Shown here: piece by piece, positions 1 through 59,202 of the stretch
How positions within the stretch are numbered: position 1 is the first letter of the stretch
How the letters are laid out: the number at the start of each line of letters is the position of its first letter
Virus record (IMG/VR): IMGVR_UViG_3300045988_036168
Reading direction: 5' to 3' (one strand)
Length of the DNA stretch: 64,000 bases
DNA from: a virus
The notes under the pieces: model-generated
What the model saw: the letters and a program-made list of their open reading frames with translations, nothing else
Database searches by the model: none
Told to the model about the DNA's origin: nothing
Made by a program: the position numbers and the translations under genes

Positions 1-673
1 GGGGCGTATTCGTGGATACGGTGCCGTCATCAGAGACCAAGAGTGTAGAGGGAAGAACCAAAGCGGGGCGGATGCCGAACGAGTAGGATGCGTAGTAGTG
101 GCTGCAGCCGCCATCGGTGAGGACGACCCACACGTAGTTGGTGTTGATGGTGAGCGGGGAGCGGAGCCACCAGCCGGCGGCCGATCCGTTCAGGTACGCA
201 ACTCGCTTCGAGTCTGCATTATTGGTGACGCACGAAGCAAAATAGCTCAGTACAGCACCTTCGCCAGAGTCGATATAGCTGTGCTCGTAGTGAACTTCAG
301 GGGCGCTCAGCAAGAAGATCTTGCAAGGCAAACCGTTTGCTCCCTGCTGCGTCGTACCACCAGAACCGCCGTTCTTGCGATACGGGAGCTTTACCTGCTT
401 GATTGCGCCCTGAATGTTGCTATCAAACAGTTTCAAGAACGTGTTGTTCAGGTAAGAGTGGATGTCGCTGCTTTCGTACTTGTTGATATTTCCGCTCTGC
501 CAAACGCGGTTCTCGTAGATGTCCTTCATCAGCAGCCAAGTGCCGTTGCAAGACTCGTCGTACACGCTGGACGGCTTGCCCTGATGCACGACGATGAACT
601 CTCTCGCCTTGCCGTTGACCGTCAGCTTGACGGTACTGCCAACGGCCTTGGTGCTCAAAAGCACATTTGCCAT
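1..673 (-). CDS. DGR target protein 1, partial (3' end beyond window); WWLRSP...GIRPAL variable-domain framework (C-type-lectin-like / DUF6273-like, from memory)
   Basis: ATG 673-671 with AGGAGG at 687-682; hand translation MANVLLSTKAVGSTVKLTVNGKAREFIVVHQGKPSS...LNGSAAGWWLRSPLTINTNYVWVVLTDGGCSHYYASYSFGIRPALVLPSTLLVSDDG stays open to nt 1; absent from ORF track because truncated. Confidence 0.8.
   Translation of the reverse strand, partial: MANVLLSTKAVGSTVKLTVNGKAREFIVVHQGKPSSVYDESCNGTWLLMKDIYENRVWQSGNINKYESSDIHSYLNNTFLKLFDSNIQGAIKQVKLPYRKNGGSGGTTQQGANGLPCKIFLLSAPEVHYEHSYIDSGEGAVLSYFASCVTNNADSKRVAYLNGSAAGWWLRSPLTINTNYVWVVLTDGGCSHYYASYSFGIRPALVLPSTLLVSDDGTVSTNTP
32..62 (-). promoter_or_regulatory. 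Conserved post-VR flank (candidate IMH-associated target-recognition element), copy 1
   Basis: 25/31 nt identical to 48210-48240 next to VR2, incl. identical 12-mer AGAGACCAAGAG (+ strand) 19 nt from both repeats; sequence next to TR (2120-2150) is unrelated. Confidence 0.5.
63..185 (-). repeat. DGR variable repeat VR1
   Basis: Gap-free 123-bp alignment to TR (offset 2088); 21 mismatches by hand count, all at + strand T of TR (= coding-strand A). Confidence 0.9.
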
Positions 674-696
674 TTCGTTTTCCTCCTTGATAAGAG

Positions 697-1902
697 TTAA
701 GAGTCAGCCCACGGAGGAACGTCCGTGGGGCGTTGGGCATAAGAAAAGGAGCCGGATTTCTCCGTCTCCCTGTTCTGATGCTGTTTCTTGTAGAGGTTGC
801 GGCATTGGCAAAGCCTTCGCTTATCGCGTACCGCACGGTTTCCGTTGAGTTTCCGGTGGATCTCCACCGGCTCACCGATGATAGCCTCCACCTTCTTTGC
901 GTATTTCGCCCGCAGCTCGTGCGTATCGCCGTATGCCGCGTGTGCGTCCCACGCTCCGAAACTCTGGAGGATAGCGTCCTTCGTAACCTCGCCGCGCTTG
1001 TAGGCTTCCTCCCAGAACTTCACCTTCGCACGGATTCGCTGGATGCTGTCCCGTCGAAGTTTCTGGATGATGCCACCGCTTTCGGTAATGTACGAATGGA
1101 AGCCGAGGAAGTCGATGCCGTTCCTCAGCGGAAAGATGCCAGTCTTCTGGTTCAGCTCCAAACCCCAGCCGTCCATCAGCGCCCGAATGTCCTTCAGGAT
1201 CTCCTTCAACCGCTGTTTGTCTGAGAGGATGACGTAGAAGTCATCCATGTATCGCCCGTAATACTTCAGGCGGTATTTCTCTTTCATCAGGTGGTCGAAC
1301 TCGTCCAGAAACATCAGAGCGAGTAGCTGGCTGGTCTGGTAGCCGAGGGGTAGCCCGTCGGTCGTATTGATGTAGACGCACAGCAGATCATAGATCTGCG
1401 GGTCTACGCCACGCTTATCGAGCAGCGCCTTTAGTTTGCGTTTCAGCTTGTCGTGGTCGATGCTGGCGAAGAAGTGATGCACGTCTCCTTTGAGAATCCA
1501 CCCATTGGTTCCTTGCCTCTCCCGCCGGTAGTAATCGACCATGTGCTGCTTCAGCCGCATCAAACCATCGTTGGTGCCCTTACCGGTCTGACTGGCGAAA
1601 TTGTCCCGAATGAAGCTCTTCGTGATGGCTTCATACAGGATGTTGTCCACGACCGCATGGAGGACGACTTTGTCCACGAACGCGGGTGCTTGGACGAGCC
1701 GCTTCTTCGGCTCATAGACATAAAACACCTCAAACCTGCTCGGAACGTAGGTCTTGGTGCTCAGGATCGTTGACAGCTTCTTGGTACAGGCCAGAACATT
1801 CGCCTCGTACTGGGCGGTTCCCGGCTTTGACCGTTTCCGCTTTCTGGCCTCCAAGTAAGCTGCGTACAGCGTTTCAAAGCTGCACATCTCTTGATAGGTC
1901 AT
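697..1902 (-). CDS. DGR reverse transcriptase
   Basis: Start MTYQEM at 1902 (ORF 697..2139 trimmed); motifs SQTGKGT, LPLGYQTSQ (DGR-type GxxxSQ), YMDDF; TR lies 248 nt upstream. Confidence 0.9.
   Translation of the reverse strand: MTYQEMCSFETLYAAYLEARKRKRSKPGTAQYEANVLACTKKLSTILSTKTYVPSRFEVFYVYEPKKRLVQAPAFVDKVVLHAVVDNILYEAITKSFIRDNFASQTGKGTNDGLMRLKQHMVDYYRRERQGTNGWILKGDVHHFFASIDHDKLKRKLKALLDKRGVDPQIYDLLCVYINTTDGLPLGYQTSQLLALMFLDEFDHLMKEKYRLKYYGRYMDDFYVILSDKQRLKEILKDIRALMDGWGLELNQKTGIFPLRNGIDFLGFHSYITESGGIIQKLRRDSIQRIRAKVKFWEEAYKRGEVTKDAILQSFGAWDAHAAYGDTHELRAKYAKKVEAIIGEPVEIHRKLNGNRAVRDKRRLCQCRNLYKKQHQNRETEKSGSFSYAQRPTDVPPWADS
708..729. repeat. Palindromic hairpin motif CCCACGGA-N6-TCCGTGGG (copy 1 of 3)
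   Basis: 8-bp perfect stem; 13-mer GGAACGTCCGTGG (716-728) identical to 57421-57433; related copy 12376-12393; sits in the last codons of the RT gene, 35 nt before the target ATG. Confidence 0.6.
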
Positions 1903-2150
1903 AAACTCGCTTCTTTGCTGTTGTTGCTTCCTCTGGTCTGGGTATAGGGCAAGCTCCAGACCAGCCATCACTCCTAACACCGGTCGTCTTGCCCCCGGCA
2001 GCCGCAGCATCCAAGTCGGGATGGCGAGCCTCGGTGTGATGTGTTTATCGTCCATCCATGCACAGACGGGCGACAGGATATGACTCCCTTTGATGATGGT
2101 GTACTGTGTTCGTCCCATCGGAGGGATTACTAATCTCACTTTCCATCAGA
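1903..2150 (-). ncRNA. TR-RT spacer, presumed part of the DGR RNA
   Basis: 248-nt gap (in-frame upstream extension of RT ORF has no RBS); 9-bp hairpin 1933-1941/1956-1964; role inferred from the BPP-1 DGR, where the spacer after TR primes cDNA synthesis. Confidence 0.4.
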
Positions 2151-2273
2151 GCGGGGCGGATGCCGTTCGAGTTGGATGCGTTGTTGTTGTTGTAGTTGCC
2201 ATTGGTGTTGACGTTCCACACGTTGTTGGTGTTGTTGGTGTTCGGGGAGCGGAGCCACCAGTTGGCGGCCGAT
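2151..2273 (-). repeat. DGR template repeat (TR)
   Basis: Coding-sense reading AANWWLRSPNTNNTNNVWNVNTNGNYNNNNASNSNGIRPA (16 Asn codons); master copy matching VR1 (123 bp) and VR2 (109 bp). Confidence 0.9.
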
Positions 2274-2321
2274 GCGAGTCATACCCTAACTCAAGGCGGA
2301 TGCCTCCGCCATGAACCCTGA

Positions 2322-2912
2322 TTACTTCCGTGCGGACTGGGCTGCGGAGCAAGCGGACATCACCAGATTGTAGAGGCTCCTGTCCTCCTTTTCCTTCGCT
2401 TCCGAACGGAGCTTGTTGGCTCTGCCGCGGTCTCCCTTCAGCCACGCCATCGCCATATACTTGACGTCTGTGACTTTCTTGGTCCAGACGCCCGCCTTCT
2501 TCACGCTGATGATGCCTTCGTCCATACAGATCGTGATATACTCCAGCAGCAGGGAGCAGCCGTCCACCACTTCCTCGATCTTGTGGATTCTATCCTCATA
2601 CGCCACCACGAAGTTCGTGTTGTTGGCGCGATGGATGTCCGTCAGGATCTTTTTCGCGGTTTCGCGCATATCCTCTCCATACATTCGGAAGGTACTCTTT
2701 GTGAAGCCCTCCTTGTCCTTGGTGTCAAGGACGTGTACGACCTCTTGGCAGACCATCTTGACATCGCAGATGTCGTCGAGCTCGGCAACCCGTGTGATAA
2801 TTGCTCGAACGTCGGCCTTGCTGATGTCGCCGGAGACAACTCTCGTCGCCTGCTTGGTGTACTTCAGAAGCTCCCTTGCTCTGTTGCCAAGCAGAAACTC
2901 CTTATCGGCCAT
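2322..2912 (-). CDS. Putative DGR accessory protein (Avd-like helical bundle with N-terminal extension)
   Basis: 196 aa directly upstream of TR; ANNTNFVVAYEDRIHKIEEVVDGCSLLLEYITIC...VTDVKYMAMAWLKGDRGRANKLR resembles the Avd pattern with a basic C-terminus; longer than typical ~120-130 aa Avd. Confidence 0.4.
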   Translation of the reverse strand: MADKEFLLGNRARELLKYTKQATRVVSGDISKADVRAIITRVAELDDICDVKMVCQEVVHVLDTKDKEGFTKSTFRMYGEDMRETAKKILTDIHRANNTNFVVAYEDRIHKIEEVVDGCSLLLEYITICMDEGIISVKKAGVWTKKVTDVKYMAMAWLKGDRGRANKLRSEAKEKEDRSLYNLVMSACSAAQSARK

Positions 2913-3156
2913 GTCTGCACTTCCTTTCCAGGCATTGCCCGTTTAATACGGCGGCCAGATCTTCAGGCTCGCCGATAAAAATGCAGCAGTCGCTCTTGAC
3001 GGTCAGCGTCCCATAATTTTGAGCGTGGGTCATACCGCAGATGACAAGATCGGTGCTGCGTCTGAGGTCGCACGGAGGCGTGATCGCTGAGAACAGGTTC
3101 CCGATGATGCAGGAAATTTCATCAGCGGGGCGTGAGAAAATGATTTCCTCTGCCAT
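2902..3156 (-). CDS. hypothetical protein (84 aa)
   Basis: Start MAEEII at 3156 in ATGA overlap with upstream gene stop; co-oriented; no motif recognised. Confidence 0.4.
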   Translation of the reverse strand: MAEEIIFSRPADEISCIIGNLFSAITPPCDLRRSTDLVICGMTHAQNYGTLTVKSDCCIFIGEPEDLAAVLNGQCLERKCRHGR

Positions 3157-3542
3157 CAGAACTCGATCCTGCCCAGCGATGCGTTCCATACGCCGGTCAC
3201 GTTGACCGCACTCAGGTCGGTGAAGCCGACGCTGAACGGGTTCTTCGTGATCTCCGTGCCGTACTTCAGCTCGATAGCCTTGACGGCTGCGTCAACAGCC
3301 GCGATGGAAGCGCGGATGTCGCCATGCGCGGTTTCGTCCGTGTTGTGCGCCGCCACATCCTGATCGACGAGATCGTCGGTCTGTTTCCTCGTGTAAGCAT
3401 CAACGTCGGGGCGCTGAGATGCGGTCAGTTTGCCGTTCGCGTCCAGCGTTGCGAGCCCACTCGGCGTACCGACCTGTTCGGTGGTCAGATACTTGCTGTC
3501 ATCGGTCTGAGCCTGACCGACATTTACGGTTCCATAAGCCAT
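3156..3542 (-). CDS. tail-fibre-type protein
   Basis: TPSGLATLDANGKLTASQRP motif typical of phage fibre proteins; position in fibre module. Confidence 0.6.
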   Translation of the reverse strand: MAYGTVNVGQAQTDDSKYLTTEQVGTPSGLATLDANGKLTASQRPDVDAYTRKQTDDLVDQDVAAHNTDETAHGDIRASIAAVDAAVKAIELKYGTEITKNPFSVGFTDLSAVNVTGVWNASLGRIEF

Positions 3543-3551
3543 ATCGTCTGG

Positions 3552-3962
3552 TTACTCCTTTCCCTGATTCAGCCAGTATTCCGCGGAAATAGCGGCGGCC
3601 GGAGCGGTCTTCGCCCATACGCGGATCTTCCCCGCCAACGTCTGGTTGGTCGGAGACATCCCGCAGGCGATAGCCGCTGCCTGACTGTTCGGCGCAATGG
3701 CAATGTCAACACGGTCTTTCGCCGTGATTCCCGCCACAACGATGTCGCAATAACTCGGATAATCTTCCGAGTTCTCGTCGATTCCCCAGCCGGTAGTCGG
3801 AATCGTGATTGCCTTCGTGTTCTGCTTGTCGGCCTTCACATCCTCCATTTCCTGCATCGCCTCCGTCACGGTCTGCGCCAGATTGGCTACCAGACCGTTC
3901 GTAAAGCTCTTCGCCGCTTCCGCACAGGCTTTCAGATGGTTCAGGTATGTCAATTTACCCAT
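3552..3962 (-). CDS. fibre-module protein, paralogous domain to C-terminal part of 6791..7825
   Basis: RBS GGAGG; ITIPTTGW...SPTNQTLAGKIRVWAK parallels ITIPHTGW...CPTVQTLAGALRFWAK in 6791..7825. Confidence 0.5.
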   Translation of the reverse strand: MGKLTYLNHLKACAEAAKSFTNGLVANLAQTVTEAMQEMEDVKADKQNTKAITIPTTGWGIDENSEDYPSYCDIVVAGITAKDRVDIAIAPNSQAAAIACGMSPTNQTLAGKIRVWAKTAPAAAISAEYWLNQGKE

Positions 3963-8823: not shown

Positions 8824-10318
8824 TCTCCACCTCGATCATCTCCTCCTTGGTGTAGGCCCGCTGACGCGCCGTAATGTTCTTACTGCGGTCGGGGTACTGG
8901 GAGGGTTTTTCATCGGAGGCGTCCGCCGAAGCGTAAAGCTGAATGTCGATATAGCTGATGCCAGAGCAGGCTTTGTAAAGCTGGCTCATGAACTGCTGCG
9001 GAACGACATCCTTGCCAGCATCCAGAGCGTCCATGTTCTCCAGGACGACCTCTCTCAGCAGGTCAACGTAGTTCGGCGGCAAAGCCTCGGAGCGGTTGAG
9101 CGTGATGCCCAGGCGGAACCATGTGTAAATCGTCGTAGGCCGGTTAAAACGAATCGTGATTTCTTCGTCGTACTCACCGGGCAGGACAACCACAGTTTCG
9201 CCAACGGTGTTGATGCCGCCCGCTTTGTTGGCGAGGATCTGCTGCGCAATCTCCTTCGAGTCACCACCGTCCACCACGATCTCGACGCTGTGAGGCGGGC
9301 GGACGATGTCGCCTTCGGGCGTTCCGGTCACGTCCTTCGCGTCCAGATAGGTTCCGTCCACATACCATTGGTGCGTGGCATTCTCATACGGAGCGACGCT
9401 GCGGACGCCCTGCACGTTCAGCAGGATCGCGGAGCGGATGCTCTCAAGCATATTGCTCGAACGGTTGAAGATTTTGTCCGCGTAGGACTGGCGGAACTCA
9501 ACGTCCGTCTCTTCGTCACGGCCCGCGATGTAGCCGCAGAGGTTCTCGACGGCCAGCAGGCCAGCGTCGGCGTTGACGATGTTCGTAATGACCCCGCCAG
9601 GAATCAGGATGTCGCCGTTCTCTTCGGTGCCGAAGGTGATGATCGACGTCACCGTCTCCGTGGTCAGGTTCTCGGAGAGAATCAGCACATTGTTCGAGGC
9701 GATGTCTGCCGCCTCGATGTTCAGGAACTCATTCGTCTCGTCCACGGAGGCCGTGAACTTCTCGTCGGTGATGGCCGCCGCGATGCCTTTCAGCACCGTG
9801 AGCGTGTCCACCGCCGTCGGACTATAAGAAAACACCGCGCCATTGATGGCTACGGTGTAGACGCTCTCTGTTCCGAGGGACGCGATTTTGATGCAGGCAC
9901 GATTGAACGACGTACGGCTGATTTCTCTCGTGTCCGTGATACTCAGATAGGTTGTCGGGTTCGTCGCGGAGGAAATCCGCGTACCGGCGGCCAGCTTCGT
10001 TCCGTCCTTGCCGGTGCAATGAATCGGGTAGTACGACTTCGCGGCCGCCTCACGGGTGGAGCCGCCATACTGGGCGGCATTGTCGAGGCTCCGACCCTCT
10101 GCAGTGGCCGGGTACTGCGAGAAGTACACCGCTTCGCCGAACTCCCAAAGGTCGGCGATGGCGTCAGCCACGTTCGTCAGCAGGTGGTTCAGCAGGGACT
10201 CGGGGTTCTGGCGCGTATTCACGCCCCATTTCTCAGACAGGCCCGAGTGCATTTCTTCCAGAATGACATCCAGCCGCTTGATATTCGGCCCCTGTGGGGT
10301 CAGGCCATAATCAGCCAT
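8813..10318 (-). CDS. baseplate J-like protein (XkdT/gp47 type)
   Basis: 501 aa, pattern and position of the Baseplate_J family. Confidence 0.75.
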   Translation of the reverse strand: MADYGLTPQGPNIKRLDVILEEMHSGLSEKWGVNTRQNPESLLNHLLTNVADAIADLWEFGEAVYFSQYPATAEGRSLDNAAQYGGSTREAAAKSYYPIHCTGKDGTKLAAGTRISSATNPTTYLSITDTREISRTSFNRACIKIASLGTESVYTVAINGAVFSYSPTAVDTLTVLKGIAAAITDEKFTASVDETNEFLNIEAADIASNNVLILSENLTTETVTSIITFGTEENGDILIPGGVITNIVNADAGLLAVENLCGYIAGRDEETDVEFRQSYADKIFNRSSNMLESIRSAILLNVQGVRSVAPYENATHQWYVDGTYLDAKDVTGTPEGDIVRPPHSVEIVVDGGDSKEIAQQILANKAGGINTVGETVVVLPGEYDEEITIRFNRPTTIYTWFRLGITLNRSEALPPNYVDLLREVVLENMDALDAGKDVVPQQFMSQLYKACSGISYIDIQLYASADASDEKPSQYPDRSKNITARQRAYTKEEMIEVEIDG

Positions 10319-10785: not shown

Positions 10786-11313
10786 CTAATACGACAGGCT
10801 GCCGGTCACAGTCAGGTTGCCCTCGACGGTGACTTCGGGCGCAGAAATCGTCACGGAGCCTCCCTTGACGGTCAGGCGGGTTCCCTTCACATCGACGATG
10901 ACCGCATTTTGGGCGCAGGCATCCGCGACCACGGAGTTCCCTTGGGCGAACAGGCCGGGAATACAAATCGCGTTCGTCATGTCGAAGGCCAGATCCGTGC
11001 TGGTTTCCTGCCCGTACTGCCAGTAGTCGAGGCTCTGCTCGGCCACCACCAGAAGGCAGCTATCTCCGGGCTTGACCGGAAAAGCGACTGTTGCGCCCTG
11101 TGCGTTCCCCTGTGGGAATACGACCGGAACGCCGGTGACTTGCGGGAAATCCATCGTCTTCCCGTCCGGTTTCTTGAACTTCATCGCGGGCTTGACCGTT
11201 GCGATGCCCTTTGCGGCGTCAAAGCTGACGATCTGACCCGGCATGGCCGTATGGATGCCGCGAAGCCCACGCTGGACGGTGTTTTGGATCTCCTGCACAA
11301 ACTCCTGCATCAT
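10786..11313 (-). CDS. baseplate spike / assembly protein V-like (Gp138-N type)
   Basis: Start MMQEF (RBS GGAGGTG); PGQIVSFD...ATVKP...VPVVFP pattern; C-terminal VTISAPEVTVEGNLTVTG. Confidence 0.6.
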   Translation of the reverse strand: MMQEFVQEIQNTVQRGLRGIHTAMPGQIVSFDAAKGIATVKPAMKFKKPDGKTMDFPQVTGVPVVFPQGNAQGATVAFPVKPGDSCLLVVAEQSLDYWQYGQETSTDLAFDMTNAICIPGLFAQGNSVVADACAQNAVIVDVKGTRLTVKGGSVTISAPEVTVEGNLTVTGSLSY

Positions 11314-12176
11314 TACCCCTGCACCTCCATAAGTCGCGCCGTGCACGTCCAGTCACCGGAGATGTTATCCCCGGCCTGCGTCAGCTTGGCGACGCGGAAA
11401 TAACCCGTGACGGTCTTGCTCTCCAGCTTCACATAGTCGTCAATGTGGATGGCCCCGTTCAGGAAGAACTCGACCTCCCACCCGATGCTGGTCTTATCGC
11501 TCGTTTCGGAGTTGGCCTCGGTGACGCGGGCAGGGATGCCCAGCAGCCCAGAGTCCTCAGAAAGAACGAAGACCTCACGGCTCATGACGTCCCCCGGCTT
11601 CTTGACCTGCATGACGCCGTTCTGCAGACTCCACACGAGGCCGCAGCAGGCGCAGCCCTTCGTCATGATGTCGCGGGCAAGGCCGACAAAGCTGAAGCCG
11701 TTGGCGATGTCGGCAAACTCAGCGTTGTACGAATACGTCACCGCCACACCCATCTGATTTGCCACATCGTCGAAGATGGTCTTCCAGTTCACCGTGCCAA
11801 CATACGAAATCGTGACGTAGGTATCGCGGATCTCGACGAGGTTGTCTACCACCTCGATTTCCGTCTTGCGGTCTGCGCCGTCGTGGGTCGTGACGCAGTT
11901 TGTGACGATGCCGGCGAAAATCAGCGGCATACGGCTTCCGTAGCCCGCCTTCAGGGACAGGACGCAGTCCTTTTCGTCCAGAGTGGCAAGGTGCTCCTTG
12001 TTCAAGTTCCAGACGGTCACGCGCCCCGTGTTCTGCGTTTCAAGGTCGGTGCGCTCAATGGAGAAATTGATGTGCAGCGGGACGGGCTGGCTCTTCGACT
12101 TCTCGCCGATCTCGAAGCCCATGCTGCCGGCTTTACCTGCAGCCAAGCGATACTCTCTGTCAAAGTTCGCAGACAT
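11313..12176 (-). CDS. baseplate hub (XkdQ / late-control-D-like)
   Basis: Start MSANFD at 12176 (RBS GAGGGGGG); size and position. Confidence 0.55.
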   Translation of the reverse strand: MSANFDREYRLAAGKAGSMGFEIGEKSKSQPVPLHINFSIERTDLETQNTGRVTVWNLNKEHLATLDEKDCVLSLKAGYGSRMPLIFAGIVTNCVTTHDGADRKTEIEVVDNLVEIRDTYVTISYVGTVNWKTIFDDVANQMGVAVTYSYNAEFADIANGFSFVGLARDIMTKGCACCGLVWSLQNGVMQVKKPGDVMSREVFVLSEDSGLLGIPARVTEANSETSDKTSIGWEVEFFLNGAIHIDDYVKLESKTVTGYFRVAKLTQAGDNISGDWTCTARLMEVQG

Positions 12177-12254
12177 CAAAATCCCCCCTCTCGTTTTACA
12201 AACGACTTTGCTCAAAAAGCAAAATCACGAAAAATAAGCAAAGAAAACACGCTC

Positions 12255-12422: not shown

Positions 12423-12743
12423 TCAGTCGCTATCTTCCGCAGGGCAGAATACGAAACTGGCCTTCCCGTCGAGAAAATCATTCCTCCCGATGTGCTCCAG
12501 CTTGGTCATCACACCGAAAACACCGCTTGGCAACGCGGTCACGCCGTAGAACAGGTTCATAGGGAACCTCGGTACAATCTTGATGCCGATGACGATAGGC
12601 TGACTCTGCGTGTCATAGAGGCCGAACTTCCAGAAGCCGCCGCGGTCGTTCCATGTGAACCGAATCAAATACGCCTTGCCGTTCAGAACGACGCGGCTCA
12701 TGCTGTCATTGAGGTCTGGGACTTCGATGATCGTATATTCCAT
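12423..12743 (-). CDS. baseplate plug-like protein
   Basis: 106 aa; LIRFTWNDRGGFWKFGLYD pattern as in baseplate plug proteins (from memory); position. Confidence 0.45.
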   Translation of the reverse strand: MEYTIIEVPDLNDSMSRVVLNGKAYLIRFTWNDRGGFWKFGLYDTQSQPIVIGIKIVPRFPMNLFYGVTALPSGVFGVMTKLEHIGRNDFLDGKASFVFCPAEDSD

Positions 12744-35117: not shown

Positions 35118-35191
35118 TGGACCGGGCCCCAGCTTGCGAGGCTGGAACGCCTGCCGGGGAGGCAGGAATGATGCACTTTCACCAAGCCCGG
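35118..35191 (-). tRNA. non-canonical tRNA-Gly-like element A (anticodon-position CCC), CCA encoded
   Basis: Cloverleaf CCGGGCU-UG-GUGA-AAGUGCA-UCAU-U-CCUGC-CUCCCCG-GCAGG-CGUU-CCAGC-CUCGCAA-GCUGG-GGCCCGG-U-CCA; no G18G19, no T-Psi-C-type loop. Confidence 0.5.
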
Positions 35192-35194
35192 ATA

Positions 35195-35267
35195 TGGACC
35201 GGGAATCCGCTTACGGGGCGGAAACTCTCGACAGGATGCCGAGCGTGATACCTTTCGCTATTCCCGG
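35195..35267 (-). tRNA. non-canonical tRNA-Gly-like element C (anticodon-position UCC), CCA encoded
   Basis: CCGGGAA-UA-GCGA-AAGGUA-UCAC-G-CUCGG-CAUCCUG-UCGAG-AGUU-UCCGC-CCCGUAA-GCGGA-UUCCCGG-U-CCA; A at position 33. Confidence 0.45.
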
Positions 35268-35292: not shown

Positions 35293-35369
35293 TGGCACGG
35301 ACGGTTGGGAATCGAACCCACCACACGCGGTTTTGGAGACCGTGTCGCCACCTTGGGACATTCGCCCGT
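35293..35369 (-). tRNA. tRNA-Trp(CCA)-like, irregular
   Basis: ACGGGCG..CUCCAAA loop..GGUUCGAUUCC..CGUCCGU-G-CCA; A1:U72, G73, canonical T-loop and GG in D-loop; only 4 clean bp in anticodon stem and a G.A mismatch in T-stem. Confidence 0.55.
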
Positions 35370-35372
35370 ATA

Positions 35373-35446
35373 TGGACCGGAACCCTACTTGCGAGGTAGG
35401 AACTCCCTCAAGGATAGAGGGCGTGATGCTCTTTCACCAGTTCCGG
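35373..35446 (-). tRNA. non-canonical tRNA-Gly-like element B (anticodon-position UCC), CCA encoded
   Basis: CCGGAAC-UG-GUGA-AAGAGCA-UCAC-G-CCCUC-UAUCCUU-GAGGG-AGUU-CCUAC-CUCGCAA-GUAGG-GUUCCGG-U-CCA; all stems perfect. Confidence 0.5.
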
Positions 35447-47800: not shown

Positions 47801-47814
47801 GGTATTTTCCTCCT

Positions 47815-48045
47815 TCATTTTGTCGTGTCGCGGATGTACTTGTTTCGGCAGGCTTCACAGCAGAAGTCGTGCCACTCGCCATCCACCTTCGTCGTGATCC
47901 ATCCGAGCCGCTCCCGCAGCTCTTTCCGGTGGGCCTTCGAGTCGATGTCCTCGCTATCGAACGGGAACGAAACGTCCTTGCCACAGCAGTCGCACGAGTA
48001 CACGGCTTCGCCTTCCCAATAGCCGCTAAACTCCAGATCTCTCAT
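47815..48045 (-). CDS. small Cys-rich (zinc-ribbon-like) protein
   Basis: CDCCGK...FCCEACRNKY; 76 aa. Confidence 0.45.
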   Translation of the reverse strand: MRDLEFSGYWEGEAVYSCDCCGKDVSFPFDSEDIDSKAHRKELRERLGWITTKVDGEWHDFCCEACRNKYIRDTTK

Positions 48046-48755
48046 TCGTCCGTCCCATCCTCGCCCATGAAGACCGAGCCGGCCCGCATCGCTCTGCGCT
48101 GGATCTCCTCCAGCAGCGTCGCCGTGCTGATGCCGTCAAGGCTGGGCAGGCCATTGCCGCCGCAGCAGTCGCATTCGCCGCAGCAATCTTCCTCAACCTC
48201 GTCGTCCAAAGAGACCAAGAGGTCAGAGTTAAGAAGCAAAGCGGGGCGGATGCCGTTCGAGCTGGATGCGTAGTAGTTGACGTAGTAGCCATCGGTGCTG
48301 ACGTACCACACGAAGCTGGTGTCGTAGGTGATCGGGGAGCGGAGCCACCGACACGCCCAAGGCGTGACGAGCCAGTACCAGTCATCCTCGTTCAGCGGGA
48401 TCAACTCCTTGAACTGGCCGTACTGCCAGAGCGTCAGGGGCGCCGCCTTGACCGTGATGGTGCCGTAGCTCTTGCTACGGTCGGTGCAGCTCAGATCCAC
48501 CTCAAACGGGAGAATGGCCGCGGCCTCCTCCGATGTGCGAGGCAGGGCCTCCACCCACTTGTCGATGCGCTCCTTCAAGGTGGAGCGGGTGTAGTCGTTG
48601 CGGTTCTCCGCATCGTCCTTGTCGTTGAACGGGCAGGACTCCTTGCTCTGAGCCAGCAGGACGAACGTGGAGCCGTCGCGCTGTTCCATAACAACGAACT
48701 TTTCACCGGCGAAGTTGAAAATGCGGCCGGGGCTGAGTTTTGCGAGTTTCTTCAT
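48042..48755 (-). CDS. DGR target protein 2 (remote), same WLRSP...GIRPAL framework, Cys-rich C-terminal extension
   Basis: Contains VR2; ...WACRWLRSPITYDTSFVWYVSTDGYYVNYYASSSNGIRPALLLNSDLLVSLDDEVEEDCCGECDCCGGNG...; lies in the replication/recombination operon. Confidence 0.8.
   Translation of the reverse strand: MKKLAKLSPGRIFNFAGEKFVVMEQRDGSTFVLLAQSKESCPFNDKDDAENRNDYTRSTLKERIDKWVEALPRTSEEAAAILPFEVDLSCTDRSKSYGTITVKAAPLTLWQYGQFKELIPLNEDDWYWLVTPWACRWLRSPITYDTSFVWYVSTDGYYVNYYASSSNGIRPALLLNSDLLVSLDDEVEEDCCGECDCCGGNGLPSLDGISTATLLEEIQRRAMRAGSVFMGEDGTDE
48210..48240 (-). promoter_or_regulatory. Conserved post-VR flank, copy 2
   Basis: See 32-62; same 12-mer at the same 19-nt spacing from the repeat end. 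Confidence 0.5.
48241..48349 (-). repeat. DGR variable repeat VR2 (remote)
   Basis: Gap-free 109-bp alignment to TR 2151-2259; 15 mismatches by hand count, all at + strand T of TR; homology ends at 48350. Confidence 0.85.
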
Positions 48756-56397: not shown

Positions 56398-57315
56398 ATG
56401 ATCTTCGGCAAAGACTTGGGACGTTCTGCCTTCTTTGCCGAAATCGGCTCGGAGGTTGAACGTCTGGACAGCATCCCCAGCAACTACACAAGCCTCGTCT
56501 GCATTGGGCAGGGCGTCAGCCTCACCGATACCGTAGGACGTGAGTATCGCATCGACCTGTTCATCTCGCCCACCGGCTGTATCGCCGTTCGGCTCCCCCC
56601 TCCCCTTGCCGGTGCGTCGCCGACCGACGCCGATCCCAAGCATCTACGCCGCGTTGCCTCCATTGTGCGGGCGTGGAGCGTGGAGCAGCTCAACGAGGTC
56701 TGTGCCGACCATTTCTACCACGCCGAAGGACAGGCCGCCGACATCATCGACGTCCTCGTTCGCGCCGGTCTTGCGGGTTTCTCCGACAAAGGCAATGTCA
56801 GCAAGGCTCTCGCCGCAACGCTGGCCGGTGGCGAATTACTCTTCGAGGTCATCGACTCAGCCTCCGCACACAAGGTCTTTACCAGCCGTGAACTCATTGA
56901 CCGATTCTCTGCCGCAAAAGGCGTTGACCCAGACGACGTGACCGAGTTCATCGGTGCCCTCGAAGTCATGGACGGCTTCAGCGCCGTCTCCATCGGCCGC
57001 GAGATCATCGTTCAATATGCTCCGCTCGGCGACGGCCGCCCGTACCAGCTCTTCAAGTTCACCATCGGGCAGCATCGCTCGGACGTGGTGGCCGAGCCCC
57101 GTGTCACCCGACACCAGCTCCAGAGCAACGGGCGAGGTCCTGCCGAGGCCGACAGTTTCTTTGAGGCCCTCATTCCCTATGCGGACACGGCCTCAATGCA
57201 GCCTGCACCAGACGGCTCCATCAGTGTCTTGCCTCTCAGCATTGACGCCCTGATGGATGGCACGATGGGGCTTGTGGCAGCGGCCAGAGGCTTCGCAAAA
57301 GCAGTCTCGCAATAA
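56398..57315 (+). CDS. hypothetical 305-aa protein co-transcribed with repressor
   Basis: ATG 3 nt after repressor stop; no motif recognised. Confidence 0.6.
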   Translation: MIFGKDLGRSAFFAEIGSEVERLDSIPSNYTSLVCIGQGVSLTDTVGREYRIDLFISPTGCIAVRLPPPLAGASPTDADPKHLRRVASIVRAWSVEQLNEVCADHFYHAEGQAADIIDVLVRAGLAGFSDKGNVSKALAATLAGGELLFEVIDSASAHKVFTSRELIDRFSAAKGVDPDDVTEFIGALEVMDGFSAVSIGREIIVQYAPLGDGRPYQLFKFTIGQHRSDVVAEPRVTRHQLQSNGRGPAEADSFFEALIPYADTASMQPAPDGSISVLPLSIDALMDGTMGLVAAARGFAKAVSQ

Positions 57316-57364: not shown

Positions 57365-57416
57365 GGTTACGTTACGTTTACGGTATAGGTTACGGTTACG
57401 GTATGGTTACGGTTAT
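57365..57416. repeat. Hexanucleotide tandem array (GGTTAC)n, copy B
   Basis: GGTTAC and degenerate units; 57378-57401 identical to 12302-12325. Confidence 0.85.
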
Positions 57417-57420
57417 ACAC

Positions 57421-57452
57421 GGAACGTCCGTGGATTTTTGGTCGGACGTTCC
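57421..57452. repeat. Perfect 10-bp inverted repeat with 12-bp spacer, 32 bp upstream of int (attP-core or operator candidate)
   Basis: GGAACGTCCG-TGGATTTTTGGT-CGGACGTTCC. Confidence 0.6.
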
Positions 57453-57483
57453 TATGGAATATCCCGAAAAAGGAGGACTTCGT

Positions 57484-59202
57484 ATGGCTTCTCGCATCGC
57501 CGAGAAACTGGCCGCGAAGAAGGCGGCCATCTATATTCGCGTTTCTACTCATTGGCAGGTGGACAAAGACTCCCTCAAAGTTCAGCGCCGCGAACTTATC
57601 GCCTATGTCACGCTGGTGCTGGGCATCACCGACTACGTCGTGTTTGAAGACCCCGGCTACTCGGCCAAGAACACAGACCGCCCAGAATATCAGGCCATGA
57701 TGGATCGCATCCGCGCAGGCGAGTTTACCCACCTTGTCGTCTGGAAGATTGACCGTATCAGCCGCAACCTGATTGACTTCGCCGCCATGCACGACGAACT
57801 GCAGTCCCTCGGTGTCACCTTCGTCTCCAAGAACGAGCAGTTCGACACCTCCTCCGCCATCGGTGAGGCCATGATGCGCATTATCCTGATTTTCGCCGAG
57901 CTGGAGCGCAAGACCACCGCCGAGCGCGTCACGGCCGTCATGCTCTCCCGTGCCTCAGACGGTCAATGGAATGGTGGCCGTGTTCCCTTCGGCTATTCGT
58001 GGTCGAAGGAAACAAAGACATTCTCCATCGTCCCCGAGGAGGCAAAGGCCATCCGCCGCATGGCCGAACTGTACGAGCAGTACCAGTCCTTGCTCTATGT
58101 CGCCAAGTACCTCAACGACGCCGGTATCGTCACGAAGACGGGCGGCCAATGGACGCCAACCACGGTGCGCACCATCCTGACAAACCCGTGGTACATCGGC
58201 CAGTATGTCTATAACGTCCACTCAGACGGCAAGGGCATCGAGAAGCGCGACTCTGACGAATGGATCACCGTCGAGAACCACCACGAACCCATTCTGAACG
58301 AAGATGTATTCTGCCGCATGAAGTTCCTGCTGACTCGGAACAAGCGCGGCGGCGTTCCCTCTCACAAAACATACGTCAGGAAGAACATCCACGTCTTTGC
58401 TGGCCTGCTCCGCTGCGGTCAGTGCGGCTCCAACATGACAGCCAACCTCGACCGGCGGCGAGCGAACGGCTTCCGCCCCTCCCAATACGCCTGCGGCAGC
58501 CGGCGGCGCAAAGGAACCTCCTGCACCAACAAGTACATCTCCGACACCACGCTCGGCCCGTTCGTCCTGAACTACGTCGCCAACATCATCAGAGCCTCCA
58601 AGAACTTTTCTGAGACCACGACGCCCGATGTTCTGGAGCGTAAGCTGCTCCGCGGCGAAGCGTTCGAGGACGTGGCCTCCGTCAGCACCGACGCTCTGGG
58701 CCAGCTTCTCGATGCGTTCCGATCCGCCGGTGACGCCGTGGAGTACCGCCCGCAAATCGCCTTCTCCGGTGATGACAACTCCATCCGTGAAATTGACACC
58801 CTCCGCGCTCGGCGCCGCAAGCTCGACAACGCCCTCGCTCGTTTGAACGCCCTGTACCTCTACGACGACGAAGCCATGCCAGAGAAAGACTTCGTCATGC
58901 AGCGCGGCCAGATCACCAAACAGCTCGAAGAAGTCAATGCCCGCATTGAGGAACTGCAGAACCAAGAGTCCAGCGAGGAACTGGGCGACGACTTCATCGG
59001 CAAGGCCAGCTACTACATCATGGCGAACAAGCTGATCGAAGACCGCTACATCGACTACGAGAAGTACATCCGAGCCATTGACCCCTCTATCCCGCGCAGC
59101 TTCCTCCAGCAGATCATAGACCACATCGTCGTGAACGATGGCCGCGTCACCTCCATCACATTCAAGAACGGTGCGACCCACACATTCACCTACAAGACAT
59201 GA
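57484..59202 (+). CDS. int: large serine recombinase (integrase)
   Basis: Start MASRIAEK (AGGAGG 57471-57476); AAIYIRVSTHWQ catalytic Ser region, recombinase domain, CGQCGSNM zinc ribbon, C-terminal coiled coil. Confidence 0.9.
   Translation: MASRIAEKLAAKKAAIYIRVSTHWQVDKDSLKVQRRELIAYVTLVLGITDYVVFEDPGYSAKNTDRPEYQAMMDRIRAGEFTHLVVWKIDRISRNLIDFAAMHDELQSLGVTFVSKNEQFDTSSAIGEAMMRIILIFAELERKTTAERVTAVMLSRASDGQWNGGRVPFGYSWSKETKTFSIVPEEAKAIRRMAELYEQYQSLLYVAKYLNDAGIVTKTGGQWTPTTVRTILTNPWYIGQYVYNVHSDGKGIEKRDSDEWITVENHHEPILNEDVFCRMKFLLTRNKRGGVPSHKTYVRKNIHVFAGLLRCGQCGSNMTANLDRRRANGFRPSQYACGSRRRKGTSCTNKYISDTTLGPFVLNYVANIIRASKNFSETTTPDVLERKLLRGEAFEDVASVSTDALGQLLDAFRSAGDAVEYRPQIAFSGDDNSIREIDTLRARRRKLDNALARLNALYLYDDEAMPEKDFVMQRGQITKQLEEVNARIEELQNQESSEELGDDFIGKASYYIMANKLIEDRYIDYEKYIRAIDPSIPRSFLQQIIDHIVVNDGRVTSITFKNGATHTFTYKT

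Follow-up and report, generated by a model that had tools for sequence, protein, structure and literature searches.

The first 2,912 nucleotides (nt) of IMG/VR virus record IMGVR_UViG_3300045988_036168 contain a cassette which we identify with high confidence as a phage-borne diversity-generating retroelement (DGR) of the BPP-1 mechanistic type, located in a myovirus-like prophage of Oscillospiraceae gut bacteria. The whole stretch analysed comprises 64,000 nt and is referred to as the window. The genes of the region are all encoded on the minus strand, in the order avd-like accessory gene, template repeat (TR), structured spacer, reverse transcriptase (RT) gene and target gene 1, the latter containing the first variable repeat (VR1). 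A first-pass annotation made from the sequence had described positions 1-2912 as a complete DGR. The interpretation as a DGR is supported by the present analysis, and none of the tests run that could have refuted it spoke against a DGR. The word "complete" applies to the extent that the parts of such an element are present; it does not apply to target gene 1, which is cut by the window edge, and it overlooks a second, remote target at about 48.2 kb.

The decisive evidence comes from the comparison of the repeats. TR (2151-2273) and VR1 (63-185) could be aligned without gaps over 123 nt, and all 21 mismatches fall on adenines of the TR coding strand, exactly as the first-pass annotation had counted. 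The TR contains 39 adenines within these 123 nt, and the chance of finding 21 of 21 mismatches at adenines is about 3e-11. Ten of the changes are A>T, eight are A>G and three are A>C. The homology runs one base further in 3′ direction than previously assigned, with TR ending at 2150 and VR1 at 62. A repeat search over the whole window revealed a third copy at about 48.2 kb, designated VR2, which also aligns to TR without gaps and differs from it at 15 positions, all of them TR adenines (chance about 6e-8). The computational alignment that had been proposed as a check yielded not a single non-adenine mismatch between TR and the VRs within the window. Homology between VR2 and TR starts 14 nt later than that between VR1 and TR: positions 2260-2273 are common to TR and VR1 only, while TR positions 2150-2259 are common to both VRs. 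According to pattern searches the window holds only these three copies of the repeat.

Translated in the frame of the target, TR reads SAANWWLRSPNTNNTNNVWNVNTNGNYNNNNASNSNGIRP and includes 16 Asn codons (15 AAC and one AAT), while VR1 reads ...LTINTNYVWVVLTDGGCSHYYASYSFG... at the corresponding positions; both translations agree with those given earlier. The TR adenines are distributed over codon positions 1, 2 and 3 with 20, 17 and 1 occurrences, respectively. No stop codon can be reached from the TR codons through changes of A, and the number of reachable peptide variants amounts to approximately 10^21.8. Since the TR adenines lie almost only in the first and second positions of AAC codons, about 20 residues of a putative ligand-binding loop would be randomised without the introduction of stop codons.

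The repeats were further compared at the population level. The set consisted of eight Avd-bearing loci together with IMG/VR and genome loci, collected by a 17-nt pattern scan and by RT similarity. The compared prophages stem from other metagenomes and genomes and are otherwise about 98% identical, and the variation was measured between genomes, not among reads within one sample. VR2 copies were recovered by the 17-nt DNA pattern scan of IMG/VR; a search through the DnaC-like neighbour protein gave two places from five contigs. The VR heterogeneity which the first-pass annotation had suggested to look for was indeed present at this level, was adenine-specific, and was accompanied by a nearly invariant TR. 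Among 12 distinct genomic contexts TR showed three variable columns, and two of its 39 A-sites varied. By contrast, 36 of 39 A-sites but only 4 of 84 non-A sites varied among 16 distinct VR1 copies, and 34 of 39 A-sites versus 2 of 84 non-A sites among six distinct VR2 copies. All copies of VR1 and all copies of VR2 differ from each other in these otherwise almost identical prophages, which points to frequent and recent turnover.

Furthermore, 402 of 407 mismatches between TR and VR1 were located at A across 23 distinct pairs (the chimeric locus L147 was excluded), in which TR deviates from the window TR at 0 to 3 positions. When TR carried a non-A state differing from the window TR, this state was also present in the cognate VR1 in 23 of 23 occurrences, which trace back to two recurrent variants (A67T, T72C) and two found once (A106T, A10T) and are not 23 independent events. 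T72C was found in VR2 of the same viral contig as well (L063 with L018 and L148). Both VRs are turned over in the population, and private TR changes are transferred into the VRs. This directional, adenine-specific flow of information from TR to VR is the defining trait of a DGR.

Two side observations were made on the same loci. In two IMG/VR contigs that come from separate metagenomes, L125 (minus strand, around position 9461) and L147, the body of VR2 with its 5′ flank runs directly into the sequence 3′ of TR, which continues with the spacer and the RT gene, so that window position 48237 is followed by 2259 and about 46 kb are skipped. This junction is probably an assembler mis-join through the shared 3′ end of the repeats; the alternative is a real deletion by recombination between VR2 and TR. 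The second observation concerns a stretch of target 1 directly upstream of VR1 (about 186-310, residues ~123-160), which occurs in two allelic forms among the approximately 98% identical prophages. The form of the window resembles FP_Brigit and the form of L009 resembles FP_Toutatis; in loci L003-L010 the stretch is located at about 12600-12730. The mean minor-allele fraction was 0.156 upstream of VR1 compared to 0.013 downstream, which suggests recombinational mosaicism adjoining the DGR-variable loop.

The RT contains the motifs LPLGYQTSQ and YMDD, of which LGYQTSQ and YMDD had already been recognised in the first reading of the sequence. It matches Pfam RVT_1 (E 1.5e-19) and phrog_1423 (E 9e-116), and 8ub7_A was its best match among solved structures (E 3e-29). 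The alignment to 8ub7_A is identical to that with the BPP-1 brt product, and therefore this chain is taken as BPP-1 Brt; a literature search for the PDB code 8UB7 gave nothing. Identity to BPP-1 Brt is 30% over 329 amino acids (aa; E 1e-35), whereas group II intron, retron, Cas-fused and Drt RTs reached only about 1e-7 to 1e-8 against this RT, and the NCBIfam models for these classes all scored far below their cutoffs. Judged by search scores, the RT is far nearer to the DGR RT of BPP-1 than to retron or group II RTs. It shares 66-67% identity with the RTs of FP_Toutatis, Lelie and FP_Brigit.

Translation of the RT most likely starts at the ATG at 1902 and not at the start of the 480-aa open reading frame (ORF) at 2139. 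No stop codon interrupts the RT frame over the 79 codons before ATG 1902, which span the structured spacer (1903-2139), and for this reason some gene callers give an RT of 452 aa. In the population copies the RT was called at 10858-12216 (L003 and L004) and at 11011-12123 (L007); the call in L007 comprises only 370 aa and may represent a truncation.

The repeats could in principle also be paralogous DUF6273 sequence homogenised by gene conversion, with the RT being an unrelated retron, group II intron or defence enzyme. DUF6273 genes share the motifs WWLRSP and GIRPA, so some nucleotide similarity between the targets is expected, and more than 120 viral contigs contain the 17-nt motif. Nevertheless, TR is non-coding and is placed between avd and the RT gene, the mismatches are found exclusively at adenines of one copy (3e-11, 6e-8), and the variation is directional in that the VRs change and TR stays fixed. 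In addition, the match to BPP-1 Brt is better by about 20 orders of magnitude than that to retron or group II RTs, and no Rfam family, group II intron RNA included, was detected at gathering thresholds in the whole window. Gene conversion combined with an unrelated RT is contradicted by the adenine pattern, the directional variation and the RT match; we rejected it and consider it extremely improbable.

Sequence features around the repeats fit the DGR as well. The spacer between TR and RT is conserved in Brigit, Toutatis, Lelie, MT835569, MT835552, nd4 and nd12, and this conservation reaches nd4 and nd12 despite an RT identity of only 40-46%. It is predicted to fold into three helices with compensatory changes in 10 of 16 pairs; in a test on only nine sequences, from which the structure had partly been derived, the cells were paired to 92.6% compared to 25-54% in slid controls and 0 of 500 shuffles reached the score. 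Rfam motif RT-14 (RF02921) gave a full-length match at 2151-2011 with 24.7 bits, below the gathering cutoff of 48.1, and RT-2 (RF03077) matched the relatives at the same place with 21.9-29.3 bits (cutoff 40). The spacer shares with RT-14 the single-stranded motifs AGAU, ACAGU, AAAGGGA, UCCU and UAAA as well as the layout of nested hairpins; with scores under the thresholds it is at best a divergent relative of RT-14 and RT-2. A further motif, RT-10, was placed in the equivalent spacer of BPP-1, and a role in priming was suggested for it (Weinberg et al. 2017, PMC5737381). By analogy, the spacer RNA studied here would correspond to the Sp region of BPP-1, from which cDNA synthesis is primed.

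The stretch between avd and TR (2274-2321, minus strand) contains a GC hairpin, GGCGGA-GGCA-TCCGCC, at about 2295-2310, which is followed by a GGGTATGAC-like motif. Equivalents of hairpin and motif are found upstream of TR in Brigit, Toutatis, L151, MT835552, nd4 and nd12. The hairpin may be part of the DGR RNA 5′ of TR.

All three repeats are closed by the GC-rich box GGCATCCGCCCCGC, of which there are exactly three occurrences in the window. Over the 33 nt after this box, VR1 and VR2 agree with each other at 25 positions, but agreement with TR is limited to 8-10 positions. The nine amino acids common to the flanks of VR1 and VR2 are specified by identical codons throughout. The VR flanks are therefore listed here as a candidate initiation of mutagenic homing (IMH) element, and the TR counterpart as a putative non-functional IMH*.

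The accessory protein matches phrog_3206, "Avd protein of DGR" (E 3e-29), in an alignment of 174 residues against 127 profile positions. The same profile is matched by BPP-1 Avd (E 8.8e-29), and the range for BPP-1, Brigit and Toutatis is 9e-29 to 6e-36. A model calculated with AlphaFold2 (AF2) from 25 homologues (predicted local distance difference test, pLDDT, 85) consists of six helices. The best folds in the PDB were 2rld and 2gsc (target TM-score 0.75-0.83, weak Foldseek E-values of 0.04-0.8), both of which we assign to the four-helix-bundle family, of which Avd is also a member; one homologue of the accessory protein is named "four helix bundle protein" by NCBI. Profile and model together point to a divergent, enlarged Avd, in which a helical bundle is predicted to carry an insertion of about 45-50 residues.

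In target 1 a DUF6273 domain was identified over its complete length (residues 43-209, E 7e-36), and VR1 occupies the C-terminal end of this domain; the protein also matches phrog_10993 (E 5e-61). In other contigs the full-length protein has 423-425 aa; it is 63% identical to FP_Toutatis gp82 from end to end and shares its N- and C-terminal parts with a longer Brigit protein. The proteins named tentaclins in the study of nd4 and nd12 combine an N-terminal C-type lectin (C-lec)/DUF6273 domain that bears the VR hairpin with immunoglobulin (Ig)-like domains and a C-terminal anchor (PMC10743442). DUF6273 homologues were modelled as C-lec in the same work (PMC10743442). By its sequence target 1 appears to be of the tentaclin type, with the VR in an N-terminal DUF6273/lectin-like head and predicted Ig-like domains. 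No Pfam Ig domain was detected in the full-length protein, and a phmmer search against the PDB gave only a weak match to a titin module (E 0.78). The model of the target domain had one significant fold match, 9qa6, an IgA peptidase with an N-terminal DUF6273; classical lectins matched it only at E ~2-4.

For target 2, matches were obtained to phrog_9958 (E 4e-51) and to a C-terminal portion of DUF6273 (E 1.4e-5). It consists of a single DUF6273-type domain and an acidic, Cys-rich tail (EEDCCGECDCCGG..., within 48042-48230), and around the VR it shares 39% identity with target 1 over 109 aa. Its gene is located 46 kb from TR in a replication/recombination module with RusA, IstB/DnaC-like, HNH and SSB genes. 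The small target type of the nd4/nd12 study was named tgt2, and the Toutatis and Brigit groups were listed there as tentaclin carriers (PMC10743442). Target 2 matches this published type. It is followed (47811-48041, minus strand) by a 76-aa protein with a faint TRASH-like Pfam match and by an acidic protein of 335 aa, for which no family match was obtained.

Coordinates and features of the cassette and of the remote target are compiled in Table 1.

Table 1 Elements of the DGR and its two targets in the 64,000-nt window
Feature	Position	Strand	Remarks
avd-like accessory gene	2912-2322	-	196-aa ORF
Gap between avd stop and TR	2274-2321	-	48 nt
TR	2273-2150	-	non-coding repeat with 39 adenines, between avd and RT
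TR-RT spacer	1903-2149	-	247 nt; structured part 1990-2149
RT gene	1902-697	-	401 aa; stop codon 697-699
Target gene 1	673-1, runs off window start	-	ATG 671-673; first 224 codons of ~425
VR1	185-62	-	target 1 residues ~163-204
IMH-like 3′ boundary of VR1	29-76	-	GC box 63-76 and 33-nt flank 29-61
Target gene 2	48755-48042	-	237-aa ORF
VR2	48240-48349	-	inside target gene 2; IMH-like flank 48207-48239

By analogy to BPP-1, the element could work as follows. A transcript spanning the 3′ end of avd, TR and the structured spacer would be bound by a complex of RT and Avd, and cDNA synthesis would be primed from the spacer. TR would be copied faithfully except for its adenines, which would be misread. 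The cDNA would then replace the homologous VR, guided at the 3′ side by the GC box and the IMH-like flank that is common to the VRs and absent from TR. The presumed recipients are the tentaclin-type virion adhesin encoded directly downstream of the RT gene (VR1) and the small DUF6273 protein encoded 46 kb away (VR2). Priming from the spacer, formation of an Avd-RT complex and an IMH-like function are assigned from this analogy, and a position of the targets in the virion is likewise presumed.

Several results weigh against this picture. For the accessory protein no Pfam match was found, the NCBIfam Avd model reached 13.9 bits against a cutoff of 80, and hhalign of the accessory protein with BPP-1 Avd was negative, with no pairwise similarity. 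PDB searches with the Avd-like sequence and with the 25-sequence profile retrieved nothing relevant. The assignment as Avd is supported by a single remote-homology profile and by a fold match, the latter with weak E-values. No DNA hairpin or cruciform was detected in the 80-90 nt after VR1 (minimum free energy -4.2 kcal/mol, z +1.1); after VR2 there is only a weak hairpin (-13.5 kcal/mol, z -1.8), and no stem-loop is common to both. Such a hairpin downstream of the VR is common in DGRs, among them BPP-1 and many others, but not every DGR requires one. The AF2 model of the target domain has a mean pLDDT of 63, with values below 50 in the VR region, and does not confirm a lectin fold. Finally, activity of the DGR in this genome is deduced from variation between genomes, and in laboratory culture neither Lelie nor prophage CP11 showed VR variation at the level of reads (PMC11792537).

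An alternative view is that the DGR was active until recently and is now silent in this genome, with VR differences inherited from earlier activity. The measurement between genomes and the lack of read-level variation in Lelie and CP11 in the laboratory (PMC11792537) are compatible with it, and the RT of 370 aa in L007 indicates that decay can occur. On the other hand, RT, Avd, TR, spacer and both VR frames are intact in the window, all 16 copies of VR1 and all six copies of VR2 differ, and private TR changes have reached the VRs. Silencing in this genome is judged to be unlikely.

With regard to the function of target 1, it is possible, though we doubt it, that the protein decorates the capsid and is diversified for adherence to mucus or environmental glycans instead of acting as a receptor-binding protein of the tail. 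The label of phrog_10993 is "Hoc-like head decoration", mucus adherence was proposed for the Brigit and Mushu targets by Cornuault et al. (PMC5883640), and the architecture of the family, a lectin-like head on a flexible Ig-like chain, resembles Hoc (PMC10743442). Against a decoration protein stands the position of the gene, which lies outside the head module between tail-fibre genes and a tail-fibre-like DUF4376 gene; the label "Hoc-like" itself probably reflects generic Ig-like domains. Data on the localisation in the virion exist for no member of the family (PMC10743442).

Target 2 would ordinarily be regarded as a second receptor-binding protein. We also considered that it might be an early-expressed, non-structural DUF6273 binder and not a virion protein, which we regard as improbable. 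Its gene is situated between RusA and HNH/SSB, the protein is devoid of Ig anchoring domains and it ends in an acidic CCGECDCC tail, features that would be in line with a role outside the virion. If this were true, diversification by a single DGR would extend both to a structural adhesin and to an intracellular or host-directed factor, and target 2 might act, for example, in superinfection exclusion or counter-defence.

The first-pass annotation had pointed out that the order avd-TR-RT-target differs from that of BPP-1 (target-avd-TR-brt), with the target 23 nt downstream of the RT stop. The different order was confirmed and the distance was reproduced from the ORF coordinates. FP_Brigit, FP_Toutatis and Lelie, the nearest relatives among GenBank phages, show the same order of Avd, TR, RT and DUF6273/"Hoc-like" target, and their cassettes also follow tail-fibre genes and precede lysis genes. 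Hence the order that was deemed unusual in comparison to BPP-1 is the norm in this lineage. The Avd proteins of these three phages are likewise long (191-264 aa) and belong to the same PHROG, and each of their genomes has a second place matching the query. They differ from the present prophage in being separate phage species with about 68-70% nucleotide identity over the cassette, and also the hosts appear to differ, being Oscillibacter or "Clostridiales bacterium CCNA10" here and Faecalibacterium there. DGRs in these Faecalibacterium phages were described by Cornuault et al. (2018), who termed the Brigit target "Hoc-like" and found no Avd (PMC5883640). For Lelie and CP11, Gulyaeva et al. (2024; PMC11792537) reported a VR in each of two DUF6273 proteins, one large and one small.

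With nd4 and nd12 the element has in common the VR of target 1 in an N-terminal DUF6273 followed by further domains, a small, single-domain target 2, an RT gene directly followed by target 1, and the helices of the spacer RNA. Unlike the prophage studied here, nd4 and nd12 are small myoviruses of 33-46 kb, and the RTs are only 40-46% identical. Likeness to BPP-1 comprises the adenine-specific differences between TR and VR, an RT of the same clade, an Avd of the same PHROG, a structured spacer between TR and RT, and a GC-rich 3′ end of the VR. The target gene is located upstream of avd in BPP-1 but downstream of the RT gene here, Avd has 128 aa in BPP-1 compared to 196 aa here, and Mtd with a C-terminal VR is replaced by a DUF6273/tentaclin protein with the VR in its middle. 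Moreover, the present element has two targets, one of them remote, and a convincing hairpin downstream of the VRs was not found.

Gut-phage DGRs of this class have been described before, and the element is a typical member; both its gene order and its layout with two targets are known from publications on Brigit, Toutatis, Lelie, nd4 and nd12. It leaves the current understanding of DGRs unchanged. The present analysis adds the remote second target, evidence for turnover in the population and for transfer from TR to VR, profile and fold support for Avd, the covarying spacer RNA, the IMH-like flank and a host assignment. It is a well-documented and extremely prevalent example of the tentaclin/tgt2 class. 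The prophage is abundant in public metagenomes and is present in a completely sequenced isolate, Clostridiales bacterium CCNA10, and it could be a convenient system for studying the location and ligands of tentaclin and tgt2, the insertion in the enlarged Avd, and the priming of cDNA from the spacer.

Upstream of the cassette baseplate-J-like, wedge-like and tail-fibre genes are found together with several proteins of unknown function. Eight loci that extend further than the window show, downstream of target 1, a gene for a DUF4376 tail-fibre-like protein and then a lysis cassette (lysozyme, CHAP, LysM). The earlier statement that the DGR caps the tail-fibre module is correct for the baseplate and tail-fibre genes upstream but has to be modified, as one tail-fibre-like gene and the lysis genes come after it. 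A scan of positions 1-3600 found no sigma-70-like promoter and no terminator-like site on the cassette strand.

In a public collection, an identical Avd protein has index entries in 10,325 blocks, and the longest of the contigs concerned exceed 1 Mb. According to genome records, the prophage resides in Oscillibacter sp. UBA8280 and in the completely sequenced Clostridiales bacterium CCNA10 (AP018533.1), and the phage species is not present in the GenBank phage collection that was searched. Identity with prophage CP11 of Gulyaeva et al. was rejected: CP11 has a size of about 36 kb and originates from Faecalibacterium sp900539885, whereas the present prophage fills most of the 64-kb window and resides in Oscillibacter-like genomes.

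A tRNA-Trp gene (CCA) is located inside the prophage at 35293-35369 on the minus strand and is flanked by a 64-nt direct repeat (35186-35249 and 35364-35427, 70% identity). Genes are on the minus strand for about 55 kb; a switch of the coding strand follows at about 55.6-59.3 kb, where plus-strand ORFs extend from 56398 to 57315 and from 57403 to 59202 (599 aa). These ORFs may mark the lysogeny/integration end of the prophage.

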